Source of the DNA: a virus
Taxonomy: Duplodnaviria > Heunggongvirae > Uroviricota > Caudoviricetes
Reading direction: 5' to 3' (one strand)
Length of the DNA: 11,721 bases
IMG/VR virus record: IMGVR_UViG_2663762849_000017
The notes below the pieces were generated by a model. That model did not search any database. It was not told the origin of the DNA and saw nothing but the letters and a program-made list of their open reading frames with translations. This document shows, piece after piece, positions 485 to 7,936 of the stretch; the first letter of the stretch is position 1; every line of letters starts with the position of its first letter. The position numbers were made by a program, and so were the translations under genes.

Positions 485-700
485 ATGAAATCCATGGATA
501 AGTTAACAACGGGTGTCGCCTATGGCACCTCAGCAGGTAGTGCCGGGTACTGGTTTTTACAGTTGCTCGATAAAGTCACGCCCTCACAGTGGGCGGCAAT
601 AGGTGTGCTGGGTAGTCTGGTATTTGGCTTGCTGACGTATCTGACAAACCTTTATTTCAAGATTAAAGAAGATAAGCGTAAGGCTGCGAGAGGTGAATAA
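485..700 (+). CDS. S: Class II holin (pinholin), phage 21 S21-like, 71 aa
   Basis: ATG at 485 preceded by a GAGGTGGGG Shine-Dalgarno. The N-terminus MKSMDK carries the dual-start motif (Met1/Met4) typical of S21 holin/antiholin. Two hydrophobic helices are followed by a charged C-terminus [13 protein letters not shown]. The protein closely resembles the phage 21 pinholin as I recall it. Its stop overlaps the next ATG (TAATG). Confidence 0.85.
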
Positions 701-3700
701 TGTCGCCATCATTACGCAAGGCTATTGCTGCTATTGGTGGTGGGGCTGTTGCCATAGCGTCTGTGCTCATCACTGGTCCGAGTGGTGACGATGGCCTGGA
801 AGGTGTCAGCTACATACCATACAAAGATATTGTTGGTGTATGGACTGTATGTCACGGGCATACAGGAAAAGACATCATGCTCGGTAAAACGTATAAAGGC
901 AGCAGTAAGGGGCATACCCCGCGCGAAGCGAAGGACAACCTGAAATCCACGCAGTTACTGAGTGTGATCGATGCCATCAGCGAAGGGCCGATTGAAGGTC
1001 CGGTGGATGGGTTAAAAAGCGTGCTACTGAACAGTACGCCGGTGCTGGACACTGAGGGGAATACCAATATCTCCGGTGTCACGGTGGTGTTCCGGGCAGG
1101 TGAGCAGGAGCAGACTCCGCCGGAGGGGTTTGAATCCTCCGGCTCCGAGACGGTGCTGGGTACGGAAGTGAAATACGACACGCCGATCACCCGCACCATC
1201 ACGTCGGCAAACATCGACCGTCTGCGTTTTACCTTCGGTGTGCAGGCACTGGTGGAAACCACTTCAAAGGGTGACCGGAATCCGTCGGAAGTTCGCCTGC
1301 TGGTTCAGATACAGCGTAACGGTGGCTGGGTGACGGAAAAAGACATCACCATTAAGGGCAAAACCACCTCGCAGTATCTGGCCTCGGTGGTGGTGGATAA
1401 CCTGCCTCCGCGCCCGTTCAATATCCGGATGCGCAGGATGACACCGGACAGCACCACAGACCAGCTGCAGAACAAAACGCTCTGGTCGTCATACACCGAA
1501 ATCATCGATATGAAACAGTGCTACCCGAACACGGCACTGGTCGGTGTGCAGGAGGACTCGGAGCAGTTCGGCAGTCAGCAGGTGAGTCGTAATTATCATC
1601 TGCGCGGGCGCATTCTGCAGGTGCCGTCGAACTATAACCCGCAGACGCGACAATACAGCGGTATCTGGGACGGAACGTTAAAACCGGCATACAGCAACAA
1701 CATGGCCTGGTGTCTGTGGGATATGCTGACCCATCCGCGCTACGGCATGGGGAAACGTCTTGGTGCGGCGGATGTGGACAAATGGGCGCTGTATGTCATC
1801 GGCCAGAATTGCGACCAGTCGGTGCCGGATGGTTTTGGTGGCACGGAGCCGCGCATCACCTGTAATGCCTGGCTGACCACACAGCGTAAGGCGTGGGATG
1901 TTCTCAGTGATTTCTGCTCGGCGATGCGCTGTATGCCGGTATGGAACGGGCAGACGCTGACGTTCGTGCAGGACCGGCCGTCGGATAAGGTGTGGACCTA
2001 TAACCGCAGTAATGTGGTGATGCCGGATGATGGCGCGCCGTTCCGCTACAGTTTCAGCGCCCTGAAGGACCGCCATAATGCCGTTGAGGTGAACTGGATT
2101 GACCCGGATAACGGCTGGGAGACGGCGACAGAGCTTGTGGAGGACACGCAGGCCATTGCCCGTTACGGTCGTAACGTCACGAAGATGGATGCCTTTGGCT
2201 GTACCAGTCGGGGGCAGGCACACCGAGCCGGGCTGTGGCTGATTAAAACGGAACTGCTGGAAACGCAGACCGTGGATTTCAGCGTGGGCGCAGAAGGGCT
2301 TCGCCATGTGCCGGGCGATGTTATTGAAATCTGCGATGATGACTATGCGGGTATCAGCATCGGCGGGCGCGTGCTGGCGGTGAACAGCCAGACCCGGACG
2401 CTGACGCTCGACCGTGAAATCACTCTGCCATCCTCCGGTACCACGCTGATAAGCCTGGTTGACGGAAGCGGCAATCCGGTCAGCGTGGAGGTCCAGTCCG
2501 TCACCGACGGCGTGAAGGTAAAAGTGAGCCGGGTTCCTGACGGCGTTGCCGGATACAGCGTGTGGGGGCTGAAGTTGCCGACGTTGCGCCAGCGCCTGTT
2601 CCGCTGCGTGAGTATCCGTGAGAACGATGACGGCACGTATGCCATCACTGCCGTGCAGCATGTACCGGAAAAAGAGGCCATCGTGGATAACGGGGCGCAC
2701 TTTGACGGCGACCAGAGCGGCACGGTGAATGGTGTCACGCCGCCAGCGGTGCAGCACCTGACTGCCGAAGTCACCGCAGACAGCGGGGAATATCAGGTGC
2801 TGGCGCGCTGGGACACGCCGAAGGTGGTGAAGGGGGTGAGCTTTATGCTTCGCCTGACCGTGGCAGCGGATGACGGCAGTGAGCGGCTGGTCAGCACGGC
2901 CCGGACGACGGAAACCACATACCGCTTCACGCAACTGGCGCTGGGGCGGTACACGCTGACAGTCCGGGCGGTAAATGCGTGGGGGCAGCAGGGCGATCCG
3001 GCGTCGGTATCGTTCCGGATTGCCGCACCGGCAGCACCGTCGAGGATTGATCTGACGCCGGGCTATTTTCAGATAACCGCCACGCCGCATCTTGCCGTTT
3101 ATGACCCGACGGTACAGTTTGAATTCTGGTTCTCGGAAAAGCGGATTACCGATATCAGGCAGGTTGAAACCACAGCCCGCTATCTTGGCACGGCGCTGTA
3201 CTGGATAGCTGCCAGTATCAATATTAAGCCGGGCCATGATTATTATTTTTATATCCGCAGTGTGAATACTGTTGGCAAATCGGCATTCGTGGAGGCTGTC
3301 GGTCAGGCGAGCGATGATGCTTCCGGCTATCTGGATTTTTTCAAAGGCCAGATAACTGAATCCCATCTCGGCAAGGAGCTGCTGGAAAAAGTCGAGCTGA
3401 CGGAGGATAACGCCAGCAAACTGGAGGAGTTTTCGAAAGAGTGGAAAGACGCCAACGATAAATGGAATGCCATGTGGGGCGTCAAAATTGAGCAGACCGA
3501 AGACGGCAGGCATTATGTCGCGGGTATTGGCCTCAGCATGGAGGATACGGAGGAAGGCAAACTGAGCCAGTTCCTGGTTGCCGCTAACCGTATCGCGTTT
3601 ATTGACCCGGCAAACGGGAATGAAACGCCGATGTTTGTGGCGCAGGGCAACCAGATATTCATGAACGAAGTGTTCCTGAAGTATCTGACGGCTCCCACCA

Positions 3701-4287
3701 TTACCAGCGGCGGCAATCCGCCGGTATTTTCCCTGACACCGGACGGGCGGTTGACGGCGAAAAATGCCGATATCAGCGGTAACGTGAATGCGAACTCAGG
3801 GACGCTCAATAATGTCACGATTAACCAGAACTGTCGGATTCTGGGAAAACTGTCTGCCAACCAGATTGAAGGTGATATTGTCAAAACGGTGGGAAAAGCC
3901 TTTCCGAGAAATGGCAGTTATGCCAGCGGTACAATAACGGTCACTGTGTACGATGACCAGGCTTTTGACCGTCAGATAGTAATCCCACCCGTTCTGTTTC
4001 GCGGTGGTAAGCATGAAAACTTCAACAGCAACAACCAACAGTCATACTGGTATTCAACCTGTAAGCTGCAGGTACTGAAGAACGGACAGGAAATCTTTCA
4101 GCAACCCGCGACGGATGTCAGCAGGGTATTTTCATCCGTCATTGATATGCCAGCGGGACACGGCCATGTCACCCTGACTTTCAATGTTTCTTCATATGGT
4201 GCAAATAACTGGACGCCAACGACCAGTATCAGCGACCTTCTTGTTGTCGTGATGAAGAAATCAACAGCCGGTATCAGTATCAGTTGA
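700..4287 (+). CDS. J: Chimeric ORF: N-terminal ~65 aa of a SAR endolysin (R21-like lysozyme) fused in frame to a lambda J-like tail-tip host-specificity protein (residues ~66-1195)
   Basis: Residues 1-65 ([65 protein letters not shown]) match the signal-anchor-release domain and start of the catalytic domain of phage 21 endolysin. From [22 protein letters not shown] onward the protein is collinear with lambda gpJ (recalled from memory). There is no ATG at the position of the native J start, so translation depends on the R start. The ORF is uninterrupted over 3.6 kb. The last ~140 aa differ from the lambda J C-terminus and are lower in GC. Confidence 0.85.
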
Positions 4288-4305: not shown

Positions 4306-4331
4306 GGGCGCCAGAAATGGCGCCTTTTTTA
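4306..4331 (+). terminator. Rho-independent terminator between J and stf
   Basis: GGCGCC (4307-4312), loop AGAAAT, GGCGCC (4319-4324), followed by TTTTTT (4325-4330). Confidence 0.6.
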
Positions 4332-4345
4332 TTTGTGGAGTGAAT

Positions 4346-6406
4346 ATGGCAGTACAGATTTCAGGCGTGCTGAAAGACGGTGCAGGAAAACCAATACAGA
4401 ACTGTACTATTCAGCTCAAAGCAAAGCGTAACAGCACCACGGTACTGGTGAACACGGTGGCCTCTGAAAATCCGGATGAAGCCGGGCGTTACAGCATGGA
4501 TGTTGAGTATGGCCAGTACAGCGTCACCCTGCTGGTTGAAGGTTTTCCGCCTTCACATGCCGGGACCATTACCGTCTATGAAGGTTCCAGACCAGGTACG
4601 CTGAATGATTTTCTCGGTGCCATGACGGAAGATGATGTCATGCCGGAGGCATTGCGTCGTTTTGAGGTAATGGTGGAGGATGTGGCACGCAACGCTGAAG
4701 CCGCCTCTCAGAGCGCAGCGGCAGCAAAGAAATCAGAAACAGCAGCGGCATCGTCCAGGAACGCGGCGAAAACATCAGAGACGAATGCAGGTAACAGCGC
4801 GAAAGCGGCAGCTTCTTCAAAAACAGCCGCACAAAACGCAGCAACAGCGGCAGAACGTTCAGAGACAAATGCCCGTGCGTCAGAAGAAGCCTCCGCAGAC
4901 AGTGAAGAGGCTTCCCGCCGTAATGCAGAGTCAGCCGCTGAAAATGCCGGAGTCGCCACCACAAAAGCGCGGGAGGCTGCAGCAGACGCAACAAAGGCCG
5001 GGCAGAAAAAGGATGAGGCTCTGTCGGCAGCGACACGAGCTGAAAAGGCGGCAGACCGCGCAGAAGCCGCAGCGGAAGTGACTGCAGAGCCCTATGCGAA
5101 TATAGTGCCGCCGCTGCCTGATGTGTGGATACCGTTTAACGATTCACTGGATATGATTGCGGGTTTTTCTCCGGGCTATAAAAAAATAGCTATTGGTGAC
5201 GATGTGGTTCAGGTCGCCAGTGATAAACAGGTTAATTTCAGTCGCGCATCAACGGCAACATATATCAACAAATCTGGCGAACTGAAAACGGCGGAAATTA
5301 ATGAGCCGCGATTTGAGTGTGATGGCCTGCTTATTGAGGGACAAAGAACGAACTACATGCTCAATTCGGAAAGTCCAGCCAGCTGGGGGAAGTCATCAAA
5401 CATGGATGTGCCCGAAACCGGGACGGATAGTTTTGGTTTTACTTATGGAAAGTTTGTCTGCAACGATTCTCTGGTTGGGCAAACTTCGGCTATTAATATG
5501 GCATCAATTGCTGCAACAAAGTCAGTTGATGTCTCAGGCGATAACAAGTACGTGACAACCTCATGCCGTTTTAAAACAGAACGACAGGTAAGGTTACGTA
5601 TACGGTTTGATAAGTATGATGGTAGTGCAACAACTTTTCTTGGCGATGCGTACATTGATACGCAAACGCTTGAAATTAATATGACAGGTGGTGCTGCCGG
5701 CAGAATTACGGCACGAGTCAGGAAGGATAAGACCACGGGCTGGATTTTTGCAGAGGCAACGATTCAGGCAATTGATGGAGAGTTAAAAATAGGCTCTCAG
5801 ATACAGTATTCTCCTGAGCAGGGTGGGGCAACAGTATCTGGTGACTATATTTATCTTGCCACCCCACAAGTAGAGAATGGACCATGTGTATCATCATTTA
5901 TTATTTCAGGAGGCAGCGCAACGACAAGAGCCAGTGATTTGGTTAGTATCCCCACCAGAAATAATCTTTATAAGTTACCATTTACTTTTTTACTTGAGAT
6001 TCATAAAAACTGGGATATTGCACCAAACGCCGCACCCCGCGTGTGGGATATAGCAGCAGCCAATACCGGGCAATCAGCAATTGCAGCAATCAACAGAGGT
6101 AGTGGTAAGTTATATATGAGTCTGTCAAACCCTTCAGGCTCGTATGTTAATAGCGCAGCGACAGATGTATTTGCAGAGAAAACCACATTTGGATGTATTG
6201 CAAAAGCTGATGGTCACTTTCATGTGGTGACAAATGGTAAAGCGGTTAATGAAGTTTATTGTGAATATAATGGCGTGACCGCTGATAAAAATATCCGATT
6301 TGGAGGGCAGACGAATACTGGAGAACGACATCTGTTTGGCCATATTCGCAATTTCCGCATATGGCATAAAGAATTAAATGACAGGCAATTAAAAGAGGTC
6401 GTATGA
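4346..6406 (+). CDS. stf: Side tail fibre protein (lambda Stf-like N-terminus, Ala/Ser-rich shaft, divergent lectin-like C-terminal domain)
   Basis: The N-terminus MAVQISGVLKDGAGKPIQNCTIQLKAKRNSTTV...GRYSMDVEYGQYSVTLLVEGFPPSHAGTITVYE matches the lambda Stf N-terminal domain as I recall it. It is followed by an Ala/Ser/Glu-rich repetitive shaft. The C-terminal ~430 aa are encoded by lower-GC DNA and end in NFRIWHKELNDRQLKEV, a motif typical of concanavalin-A-like/LamG jelly-roll domains. I place the start at ATG 4346 with GGAG 6 nt upstream; the ORF track starts at GTG 4340. Confidence 0.8.
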   Translation: MAVQISGVLKDGAGKPIQNCTIQLKAKRNSTTVLVNTVASENPDEAGRYSMDVEYGQYSVTLLVEGFPPSHAGTITVYEGSRPGTLNDFLGAMTEDDVMPEALRRFEVMVEDVARNAEAASQSAAAAKKSETAAASSRNAAKTSETNAGNSAKAAASSKTAAQNAATAAERSETNARASEEASADSEEASRRNAESAAENAGVATTKAREAAADATKAGQKKDEALSAATRAEKAADRAEAAAEVTAEPYANIVPPLPDVWIPFNDSLDMIAGFSPGYKKIAIGDDVVQVASDKQVNFSRASTATYINKSGELKTAEINEPRFECDGLLIEGQRTNYMLNSESPASWGKSSNMDVPETGTDSFGFTYGKFVCNDSLVGQTSAINMASIAATKSVDVSGDNKYVTTSCRFKTERQVRLRIRFDKYDGSATTFLGDAYIDTQTLEINMTGGAAGRITARVRKDKTTGWIFAEATIQAIDGELKIGSQIQYSPEQGGATVSGDYIYLATPQVENGPCVSSFIISGGSATTRASDLVSIPTRNNLYKLPFTFLLEIHKNWDIAPNAAPRVWDIAAANTGQSAIAAINRGSGKLYMSLSNPSGSYVNSAATDVFAEKTTFGCIAKADGHFHVVTNGKAVNEVYCEYNGVTADKNIRFGGQTNTGERHLFGHIRNFRIWHKELNDRQLKEVV
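4680..5090 (+). repeat. Ala/Ser/Glu-rich low-complexity repeat region inside stf (fibre shaft)
   Basis: Reiterated motifs such as AAxxSETNA / AASS / AAENA in the translation. The GC-rich repetitive codons produce spurious ORFs in other frames and on the opposite strand. Confidence 0.6.
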
Positions 6407-6681
6407 AAGATTTAACTTTGAAGTTTCATGACAAACTGCAGTTTAAGGCCTTCCTGTCATCTCTTGGCTGGGCGGAAGATGAAGACCTCCAGAATAAACT
6501 GTTAGTTGATGAAATTGGTTTCACCTACACAGAAACAGGGGTAACAGAAGAGGGAGAACCTGTCTGTATCCGGAATGATGGTTATTTTGTCAACATTCGC
6601 ATTCTTGATGACTTGTTTGATGTTTCTGTATTCTCTGATTATGTCGTGGAGCTGGAAACACCGCTTCGGGAATGGAGCTGA
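6403..6681 (+). CDS. Hypothetical acidic 92-aa protein, translationally coupled to stf; possible tail-fibre accessory/chaperone by position only
   Basis: ATG at 6403 overlaps the stf stop (ATGA), with AAAAGAGG 4 nt upstream. The product is acidic and has no hydrophobic segment. It does not resemble the lambda Tfa N-terminus and its family was not recognised. Confidence 0.5.
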   Translation: MKDLTLKFHDKLQFKAFLSSLGWAEDEDLQNKLLVDEIGFTYTETGVTEEGEPVCIRNDGYFVNIRILDDLFDVSVFSDYVVELETPLREWS

Positions 6682-6693
6682 AAGGAGGAAATA

Positions 6694-7134
6694 ATGGATA
6701 TAAGCCCCTTACTTCATGCACTTTGTGCTGTGGCTGCGCAGATACTGGTTGGTCTTTTTACCGGAAACTGGGCTTACGGAGCGATAGCCGGTTGTACGTT
6801 CTTCATTGCGCGTGAACATACCCAGGCAGAATATCGCTGGATTGAAATGTTCGGGCATGGCAAGCGAATGAATATGCCGTGGTGGGGCGGTTTTGATCCG
6901 CGTGCTTGGGATGTGGCAAGCCTGATGGATTTTGCTGTGCCGGTGGTGGCGTGTCTGCTGGTCTGGCTGTTGGTTAATCGTGGGCGAAAAAAGGTGAGCT
7001 GTATATGCAACGGAGGAAGAAACCCCGTTGCTGGAAGCCAGGAAAAAGTATCGGGTGTTGCTGTCCTCGGATGTTGTGCTAATTGGGTGATAACAGATCC
7101 TGTGTATGGGAGTTTCCCTTTTTGCGTGCGTTGA
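6694..7134 (+). CDS. Hypothetical small integral membrane protein (about 3 predicted TM helices), 146 aa; C-terminal extent uncertain
   Basis: Strong Shine-Dalgarno AAGGAGG 5 nt before ATG 6694, 12 nt after the previous stop. Hydrophobic segments are LLHALCAVAAQILVGLFTG, AYGAIAGCTFFIA and VASLMDFAVPVVACLLVWLLV, followed by RGRKK. The last ~18 codons overlap the convergent sitD 3' end, so the true C-terminus is uncertain. Confidence 0.5.
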   Translation: MDISPLLHALCAVAAQILVGLFTGNWAYGAIAGCTFFIAREHTQAEYRWIEMFGHGKRMNMPWWGGFDPRAWDVASLMDFAVPVVACLLVWLLVNRGRKKVSCICNGGRNPVAGSQEKVSGVAVLGCCANWVITDPVYGSFPFCVR

Positions 7135-7936
7135 TGCTGGTAACGGCAAACGTCATGATGAACAAAACCGCGAATAAGACGACAATCGTCGGAGCTGGTG
7201 CGCTGTCGATAAAAAAGGACAACCAGACACCAGTCATTGACACTATTACCGATATGCCAGTCGCCAGTAGGAGCGCAATATGAAAGCGTTGTGTCAGGAG
7301 TACCGCAATGGCGCCAGGCGCAATGAGCAGAGAAATGGAGAGAATGATACCTACCGCTTTCAGCGTCGCCACAATGGTCAGAGAGACCATGCACAGCAGC
7401 CCATAATGCAGCCATCTCGTATGCAAACCGCTTACCTGCGCCTGTTGATAATCAAAGCTGAACAGCAAAAAATCCCGCCATTTTACGCTAATAACAAGTG
7501 TAACCAGCCCGGCAATAATCATCGTCTGGATTATATCGCCGATGGTTATCCCGAGCATGTCGCCGAAAAGAATATGGTCAAGATGTACGTCTGGTTTGAC
7601 TGCAATATACAAGATCAGACCTGCGGCAAACATGCCAGAAAAAACAATCCCCATCACTGTATCTTGCTTGATTCGGCTGTTGTCTTTCAGGTATCCCGTC
7701 GCCACCGCGCAGAATACTCCGGCGACGAATGCCCCTGTAGCCAAAGGTAACCCCAGAATCCAGGCAAGCACGATGCCAGGAAAAACCGCATGACTCATCG
7801 CGTCACCCATCAGTGCCCAACCTTTCAGGACCAGAAAGACTGACAGCAGCGCACAGGGTATGGAAACTACCAGTGAAATCAGCAGTGCGTGACTCATAAA
7901 GGTGAACTGCAGTGGCTCCAGTAATAATGCCATCAT
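7079..7936 (-). CDS. sitD: Mn/Fe ABC transporter permease SitD
   Basis: 285-aa polytopic membrane protein, last gene of a four-gene operon (binding protein, ATPase, two permeases). Its start overlaps the sitC stop by 4 bp. Confidence 0.85.
   Translation of the reverse strand: MMALLLEPLQFTFMSHALLISLVVSIPCALLSVFLVLKGWALMGDAMSHAVFPGIVLAWILGLPLATGAFVAGVFCAVATGYLKDNSRIKQDTVMGIVFSGMFAAGLILYIAVKPDVHLDHILFGDMLGITIGDIIQTMIIAGLVTLVISVKWRDFLLFSFDYQQAQVSGLHTRWLHYGLLCMVSLTIVATLKAVGIILSISLLIAPGAIAVLLTQRFHIALLLATGISVIVSMTGVWLSFFIDSAPAPTIVVLFAVLFIMTFAVTSINARKKGNSHTQDLLSPN

Follow-up and report, generated by a model that had tools for sequence, protein, structure and literature searches.

A predicted two-jelly-roll tip on the phage-21-type side tail fibre of a defective Escherichia coli prophage

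The subject of this analysis is the side tail fibre gene stf in an 11,721-nucleotide stretch of Caudoviricetes DNA (IMG/VR record IMGVR_UViG_2663762849_000017), called the window below. Positions 5100-6406 of the window, the distal part of stf, quite probably encode the receptor-binding part of a side tail fibre of the phage-21 type, a module which is built of two jelly-roll domains and would bind a surface polysaccharide. The tip itself is already known: it is the tip of phage 21 Stf, it belongs to a widespread module captured by NCBIfam and PHROGs and it has apparently been noted in the papers on the BASEL phages. The initial annotation, made from the sequence alone, had proposed a horizontally acquired, lectin-like tip with its own accessory gene, and this interpretation is essentially correct.

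The gene lies in a single open reading frame (ORF) of 688 codons that runs from a GTG at 4340 to 6406 and whose residue numbers are used here; the ATG at 4346, which would give a protein of 686 residues as annotated in phage 21, is the likely start. The block comprising stf, the two small genes orf92 and orf97 and sitD is 97.7% identical at the nucleotide level to Escherichia phage 21 (OL657228), whose counterpart CPT_21_22 (UMO75437.1) is annotated as 'side tail fiber', and the protein is assigned to two tail or tail fibre families, PHROG 1419 and 3279. As in phage 21, where the order is identical, stf starts downstream of the J-type ORF ending at 4287. A lambda-like attachment domain and an Ala/Ser-rich shaft had been recognized at the outset, and both were recovered. 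The Pfam family phage_tail_N (PF08400) matches residues 3-133 with an E-value of 4.8e-67 (224 bits against a cutoff of 26.6), residues 3-96 match the solved N-terminus of lambda Stf (PDB 9e7m, 170 bits), and the shaft, residues 100-257, consists of 34% Ala, 13% Glu and 10% Ser and is presumably a trimeric coiled coil. In the E. coli chromosome SCU-387 the gene is likewise intact (locus L002, 10168-12228, corresponding to window 4346-6406) and differs by a few bases only. The Prokaryotic Genome Annotation Pipeline (PGAP) breaks this intact gene in two, calling its N-terminal part a 'pseudogene' and naming a separate 'phage head spike fiber domain-containing protein'; that product name is misleading for a tail fibre.

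By sequence profile and predicted fold, the tip is made up of two beta jelly-roll domains of the concanavalin A (ConA)/LamG class, named D1 and D2 here. We modelled the distal 431 residues with AlphaFold2 and a 46-sequence alignment of diverse homologues; the predicted structure is all-beta, with a mean predicted local distance difference test score (pLDDT) of 92.6 and a predicted template modelling score (pTM) of 0.89. Its best structural matches are domain 4 of AbnA, the Hc-N domain of botulinum neurotoxin (BoNT), CBM40 and the pentraxins, which are non-catalytic binding domains. D1 matches the NCBIfam family NF048003 'GTA_spike_fiber' over residues 331-531 with 55.7 bits, above the curated cutoff of 36. 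It is homologous to the head-spike fibre Rcc01080 of the Rhodobacter capsulatus gene transfer agent (RcGTA), with an E-value of 1.4e-9 for the single sequence and 4.7e-42 for the family profile, and this profile also matches Pa193 gp46, E217 gp45 and the gp17 tail fibre (9occ), with E-values of about 1e-15 to 1e-17. The N-terminal (I/L)-G repeat peptide by which head spikes are anchored in the capsid was not found in stf, whose N-terminus is the tail-attachment domain of lambda Stf; the protein thus shares the domain of the gene transfer agent (GTA) head-spike fibre, yet it is not a head spike.

D2 is LamG-like. Laminin_G_3 (PF13385) matches residues 562-683 (profile positions 27-149 of 151) with an E-value of 2.3e-5, and the match is closed by the motif NFRIWHKELNDRQLKEV at residues 671-687 (nucleotides 6350-6400), which had been singled out from the start as typical of LamG domains. 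The same family is matched at an E-value of at most 1e-3 by 25 of the 46 diverse homologues (best 1.9e-11), and the family profile over the D2 positions matches 4qvs, CBM40, the Hc of BoNT/D and C-reactive protein; the predicted fold of D2 is a beta-sandwich jelly roll. Profile searches and structure prediction, two of the checks proposed in the initial annotation, have thus both returned a jelly-roll/LamG-like fold. Its description of the whole tip of about 430 residues as LamG-type names the right class, but only the last 150 residues or so are LamG-like and residues 258-535 are of the GTA head-spike-fibre type.

The tip is followed by orf92, which belongs to PHROG 1361, a family of unknown function, and has no match in Pfam, NCBIfam or PADLOC. 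PADLOC also returned no match for the tip or orf97 and thus no hint of a role in defence. Neither orf92 nor orf97 matches Caudo_TAP/Tfa at an E-value of up to 0.1, in agreement with the early remark that the downstream gene is not Tfa-like, and orf92 shows no sequence or fold similarity to the known chaperone families Tfa/Caudo_TAP and Peptidase_S74. Homologues of orf92 with 36-90% identity overlap or abut the tip gene in several backgrounds, namely lambdoid prophages, a P2-like prophage, an unrelated siphophage and the phages KurtStettler, IrisVonRoten, KarlBarth and JeffSchatz. The LamG domain stops where the orf92 relative begins in 79 of the 80 best IMG/VR loci that contain such a relative; many of these loci are near-identical and not independent. 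D1, D2 and orf92 stay adjacent, but their variants occur in different combinations: in the lambdoid locus L016 D1 is 97.5%, D2 46% and orf92 54% identical to the window, and in L015 the values are 45%, 41% and 90%. Since the three parts combine in this way, orf92 does not change in step with the variable surfaces of the tip. Consistent co-variation of orf92 with D1 or D2 was not seen by inspection; in L016 orf92 goes with D2, and in L015 it is 90% identical beside a tip that is 43% identical. The tip always travels with this translationally coupled gene of 92 codons, and for orf92 the most likely role is that of a dedicated non-Tfa assembly factor or of an accessory protein of the tip.

A second small gene, orf97, encodes a predicted membrane protein, and its phage 21 counterpart CPT_21_24 is annotated as 'putative membrane protein'. 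In the window and in SCU-387 the TGA stop of phage 21 is replaced by CGA at 6985-6987, which extends the product from 97 to 146 residues; the extended frame overlaps the 3' end of sitD on the opposite strand and is flagged as a pseudogene by PGAP. Of the 80 IMG/VR loci, 77 contain the gene, as does the P2-like locus. Lambdoid and other temperate-type records supply most of its closest matches in the phage collection; we inspected the tip loci of four virulent phages and saw no orf97 there. In temperate phages the membrane protein of 97 residues travels along with the tip and orf92. The proposal that the tip has its own accessory gene accordingly holds for orf92, which moves with it, but has to be widened to two genes, with orf97 as the second one in temperate phages.

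Carbohydrate binding by the tip would be expected from its homologues. Capsule-less mutants bind the tagged RcGTA head-spike fibre much less than capsule-bearing cells do (PMC10218006; PMC7296036), and for the lateral tail fibres of BASEL phages, which carry homologous tips, binding to O-antigen glycans has been proposed by the authors (PMC8594841, PMC11990801). In the second BASEL paper a C-terminal 'galectin-like domain' of IrisVonRoten Gp22 is mentioned as a possible additional receptor-binding domain (PMC11990801); going by the gene number alone, we take this domain to be the homologue of the tip in bas32_0022. The fibre would be attached to the tail tip by its lambda-type N-terminal domain, extend through the Ala-rich shaft and end in the two jelly rolls, which may bind O-antigen, capsule or lipopolysaccharide reversibly and so hold the virion at the cell surface until J finds its outer-membrane receptor. 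The copy in the window is a relic: the prophage at icd that holds it is defective, and no virion can be made from it. Its stf cassette could still pass to an incoming lambdoid phage by recombination, and defective prophages donating stf regions to lambda have been described (PMC3945230).

Several points weigh against this reading. The AlphaFold2 model is that of a monomer, and the Laminin_G_3 score of D2, 25.0-25.7 bits, narrowly misses the gathering cutoff of 27.6. We found no literature on the function of phage 21 Stf and no binding data for it or for the protein of the window, and the fibre is not discussed in the phage 21 genome paper. A preprint from Eligo on the engineering of lambda Stf turned out not to be relevant, as it uses a P2 tip. 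The RcGTA homologue has been produced in functional form in E. coli without an orf92-like partner (PMC10218006), so that a chaperone role of such a partner is not obligatory for D1. Finally, the highly similar orf92 of L015 stands beside a tip with only about 43% identity to that of the window.

Could the tip be a docking platform for a second, distal fibre instead, so that the fibre is branched, with orf92 as the adaptor and the second fibre lost in the lineage of phage 21? A second fibre gene directly follows orf92 in KurtStettler, IrisVonRoten, KarlBarth, the loci L005-L007 and the lambdoid L016, and the T-shaped fibre of IrisVonRoten has been predicted to attach to the proximal fibre (PMC11990801), presumably the one that bears the tip. 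Most of these second fibres start with a related peptide (MVTKTxIPxDITxLK, MATSTVIPDDIKTLK), which the L005 gene as called lacks; it is found in the genes beginning at L011 4587, L012 5617, L013 4565, L016 5370 and L006 5341. In KurtStettler, IrisVonRoten, KarlBarth and two prophages the fibres with this peptide have unrelated distal parts, and the common N-terminus suggests a docking peptide for branched fibres. No second fibre is present, however, in the window, phage 21, the P2-like prophage, L008-L010 or L015, and orf92 is still under purifying selection where it is missing (ratio of nonsynonymous to synonymous substitution rates, dN/dS, 0.24 between the window and the P2-like locus, next to 0.17 for the tip and 0.15 for orf97). 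Moreover D2 is the most variable part of the tip, as would be expected for a receptor-binding surface and not for a docking site. We regard docking as the function of the tip as unlikely. By inspection, the presence of a second fibre did not correlate with a particular type of D2, and the branched LtfA/LtfB fibres of DT57C were rejected as a direct analogue, their C-termini being of the Peptidase_S74 type and thus a different module.

The chances that the tip binds a protein such as a porin and not a glycan appear somewhat lower again. Proteins are possible ligands of LamG, pentraxin and BoNT Hc-type domains, and lambda Stf reportedly uses OmpC. The lambda tip is, however, unrelated to the one described here, the closest characterized homologue, the RcGTA head-spike fibre, binds capsule, and the homologous tips sit on lateral fibres of BASEL siphophages for which the proposed receptors are O-antigen glycans. 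Even a little less probable is an enzymatic tip, in which a ConA-like scaffold would carry a glycanase, lyase or esterase activity and the surface polysaccharide would be degraded or modified. Not only are the best structural matches non-catalytic, but no glycosidase or lyase family of Pfam or NCBIfam matches the tip, and the invariant residues lie in predicted strands near both ends of D1, where a structural role is plausible. We favour a binding tip directed at surface polysaccharide.

The evidence on the origin of the tip is direct. With blastn, window 5105-6976 aligns to positions 5487-7358 of the P2-like prophage locus L003 with 87.9% nucleotide identity, and nothing can be aligned beyond these bounds. 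In the P2-like prophage the fibre has a P2 gpH-type N-terminus (PF12571) followed by the same tip and the same genes of 92 and 97 codons, and a Caudo_TAP remnant of 74 residues lies beyond the cassette. The tip was thus acquired horizontally along with its accessory genes, as had been suspected from base composition, and the transfer of the cassette demonstrates this beyond composition. The distal region is indeed AT-richer, as first noticed: the guanine-plus-cytosine (GC) content is 0.555 in 4346-5100, 0.434 in 5101-6406 and 0.419 in orf92, and the start of the tip at PLPDVW (residue 258, nucleotide 5111) coincides with the boundary initially placed at nucleotide 5100. Part of this step is due to amino acid composition, i.e., to the GCN codons for Ala in the shaft, where GC at codon positions 1 and 2 amounts to 0.65 and 0.66. 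At third positions GC falls from 0.45 in the shaft to a modestly lower 0.36 in the tip (about 3 standard errors by our own estimate), and a larger third-position step, from 0.68 to 0.48, occurs between J and stf. That the step is purely such an artefact of the Ala-rich shaft, without horizontal acquisition, deserves next to no credence, since the same block of tip, orf92 and orf97 stands behind the unrelated P2-type N-terminus and the tip is found on Phage_fiber_2 and other N-termini too; as a full explanation it is refuted.

The module family comprises 2,893 representatives at 50% identity (E-value of at most 1e-3), and the whole unit of about 425 residues is kept at the C-terminus of proteins of 420-1,480 residues. 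In the phage collection the tip occurs in 228 records, including virulent coliphages, and the unit of tip and orf92 is common to temperate (lambdoid, P2-like) and virulent (T5-like, Dhillonvirus, Seuratvirus, rV5-like) coliphages. A second mosaic joint was located at about residues 520-545 in windowed identity profiles. Up to about residue 465 the homologue P0095 does not differ from the window protein; from there to about residue 525 it is about 93% identical, and beyond that only about 30-57%, from which we conclude that D2 has been swapped independently. P0105 could be placed on no contig. Exchange among phages takes place at three conserved joints: between shaft and D1 at PLPDVW, between D1 and D2 at TRASDxVxIP, and at the conserved last strand beside the start of orf92. 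The tip is thus a swappable module of many E. coli phages, real but ordinary.

The window represents the right arm of a phage-21-like prophage that is integrated at icd in E. coli and is defective. Across 98% of its length the window is 99.7% identical to E. coli chromosomes such as SCU-387, and at least 80% of it is present in about 550 complete genomes; bases 1-178 do not align to the near-identical E. coli chromosomes, in which matches begin at nucleotide 179. The order is holin, endolysin-J, stf, orf92, orf97, sitDCBA on the minus strand, an AT-rich stretch and the icd' duplication (Table 1). The first 65 residues or so of the endolysin-J frame are a P21-type signal-anchor-release (SAR) endolysin (Phage_lysozyme at residues 33-82) and FNIII-A_GpJ follows from residue 149; PGAP names the fusion product 'gpJ'. 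Apparently one deletion removed Rz, the terminase, the head and the tail-shaft genes, a loss which renders the prophage defective. In the phage 21 record a terminator is annotated in the equivalent gap between J and stf, and sitABCD is annotated as cargo in infectious phage 21 as well. Phage 21 lacks the AT-rich segment at 10666-11163, whose GC is about 0.35. The segment contains an ORF of 79 codons with a TTG start (10722-10961, plus strand) whose R-x4-H motif (RNKLAH) is reminiscent of HEPN domains; this ORF has no Pfam match. An Rfam search over the whole window gave no match and a promoter scan showed no excess; a hidden RNA or antisense feature is not evident in 5100-6406.

Table 1. Positions of the stf region and its neighbours in the window
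Feature	Position	Strand	Basis or remark
P21-type holin	485-700		
SAR endolysin-J in-frame fusion ORF	700-4287	+	
GC hairpin with T-run, terminator-like, between J and stf	4306-4325	+	pattern scan
Side tail fibre gene stf	4346-6406	+	ORF list, phage 21 nucleotide identity, PHROG
N-terminal attachment domain, ORF residues 3-133	4346-4738	+	Pfam PF08400, PDB 9e7m
Ala/Glu/Ser-rich shaft, residues 100-257	4637-5110	+	composition
Mobile cassette of tip, orf92 and orf97, common to P2-like prophage	5105-6976	+	blastn
Tip domain D1, residues 258-535	5111-5944	+	short beta N-subdomain, then GTA head-spike-fibre-type jelly roll
Tip domain D2, residues 536-688	5945-6403	+	LamG/Laminin_G_3-like jelly roll, ends in NFRIWHKELNDRQLKEV
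orf92, small acidic alpha/beta protein	6403-6681	+	start overlaps stf stop (ATGA)
orf97, small predicted membrane protein, ORF of 146 residues	6694-7134	+	strong ribosome-binding site AAGGAGG, PHROG 1443
sitABCD iron/manganese transporter operon	7079-10528	-	between tail fibre cassette and attachment site

What is gained is a reading of the phage-21-type Stf at the level of domains (attachment domain, shaft, GTA-spike-type domain, LamG domain), and with it a link between a tail-fibre module of coliphages and the head fibre with which a gene transfer agent binds capsule. Chimeric lambda or P2 fibres with a new host range could be designed around the three natural recombination joints, and in such designs orf92 probably must be moved together with the tip. 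It is also possible, although we propose it only tentatively, that orf92 founds an undescribed class of accessory proteins tied to GTA-spike/LamG tips and acting either as a non-Tfa assembly factor or as a small adaptor that remains on the tip and allows second fibres of the MVTKTxIPxDITxLK type to dock, giving branched fibres. The value of these results is practical and not conceptual, as they leave the current view of phage adsorption unchanged.

Among the known systems phage 21 is the closest. Its Stf, CPT_21_22, stands in the same order of J, stf, orf92, orf97, sitDCBA and icd attachment site; neither its record nor its genome paper gives domain or receptor information on the tip. In the window, unlike in phage 21, the gene lies in a prophage that is deleted and defective, endolysin and J are fused, and orf97 has lost its stop. 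With lambda Stf the protein has in common the N-terminal attachment domain, the Ala/Ser-rich shaft and the position in the late operon downstream of J, whereas lambda has the lom region between J and stf. The tip of lambda Stf is gp37-like. Here neither a tip related to that of lambda nor a Caudo_TAP chaperone is present: in stf, orf92 and orf97 no Phage_fiber, gp37-type or Caudo_TAP match was obtained at an E-value of up to 0.1, and two jelly rolls with orf92 take their place, which agrees with the early view that the usual tip dependent on Stf/Tfa has been replaced.

The RcGTA head-spike fibre Rcc01080 (GhsB, NF048003), homologous to D1, is beta-rich, has been described as lectin-like from its AlphaFold model and binds capsular polysaccharide. 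It differs in being a single subunit that sits on a capsid pentamer by way of an N-terminal Leu-Gly peptide, without any tail fibre part; it has no known orf92 partner and appears to lack the C-terminal LamG domain (325 residues, aligned to about residue 285 only). Pa193 gp46 and E217 gp45 of PB1-like Pseudomonas phages as well as gp17 of 9occ, all with solved structures, are related to D1 only and belong to the baseplate wedge or triplex of myophages. The complete architecture recurs in the BASEL phages IrisVonRoten (Gp22), KurtStettler, KarlBarth and JeffSchatz, where the same tip of D1 and D2 is present with 39-54% identity and the start of an orf92 homologue overlaps the end of the fibre gene. 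These tips are carried by other N-termini on virulent T5-like, Seuratvirus, Dhillonvirus and rV5-like backbones without orf97, and usually a second distal fibre follows.

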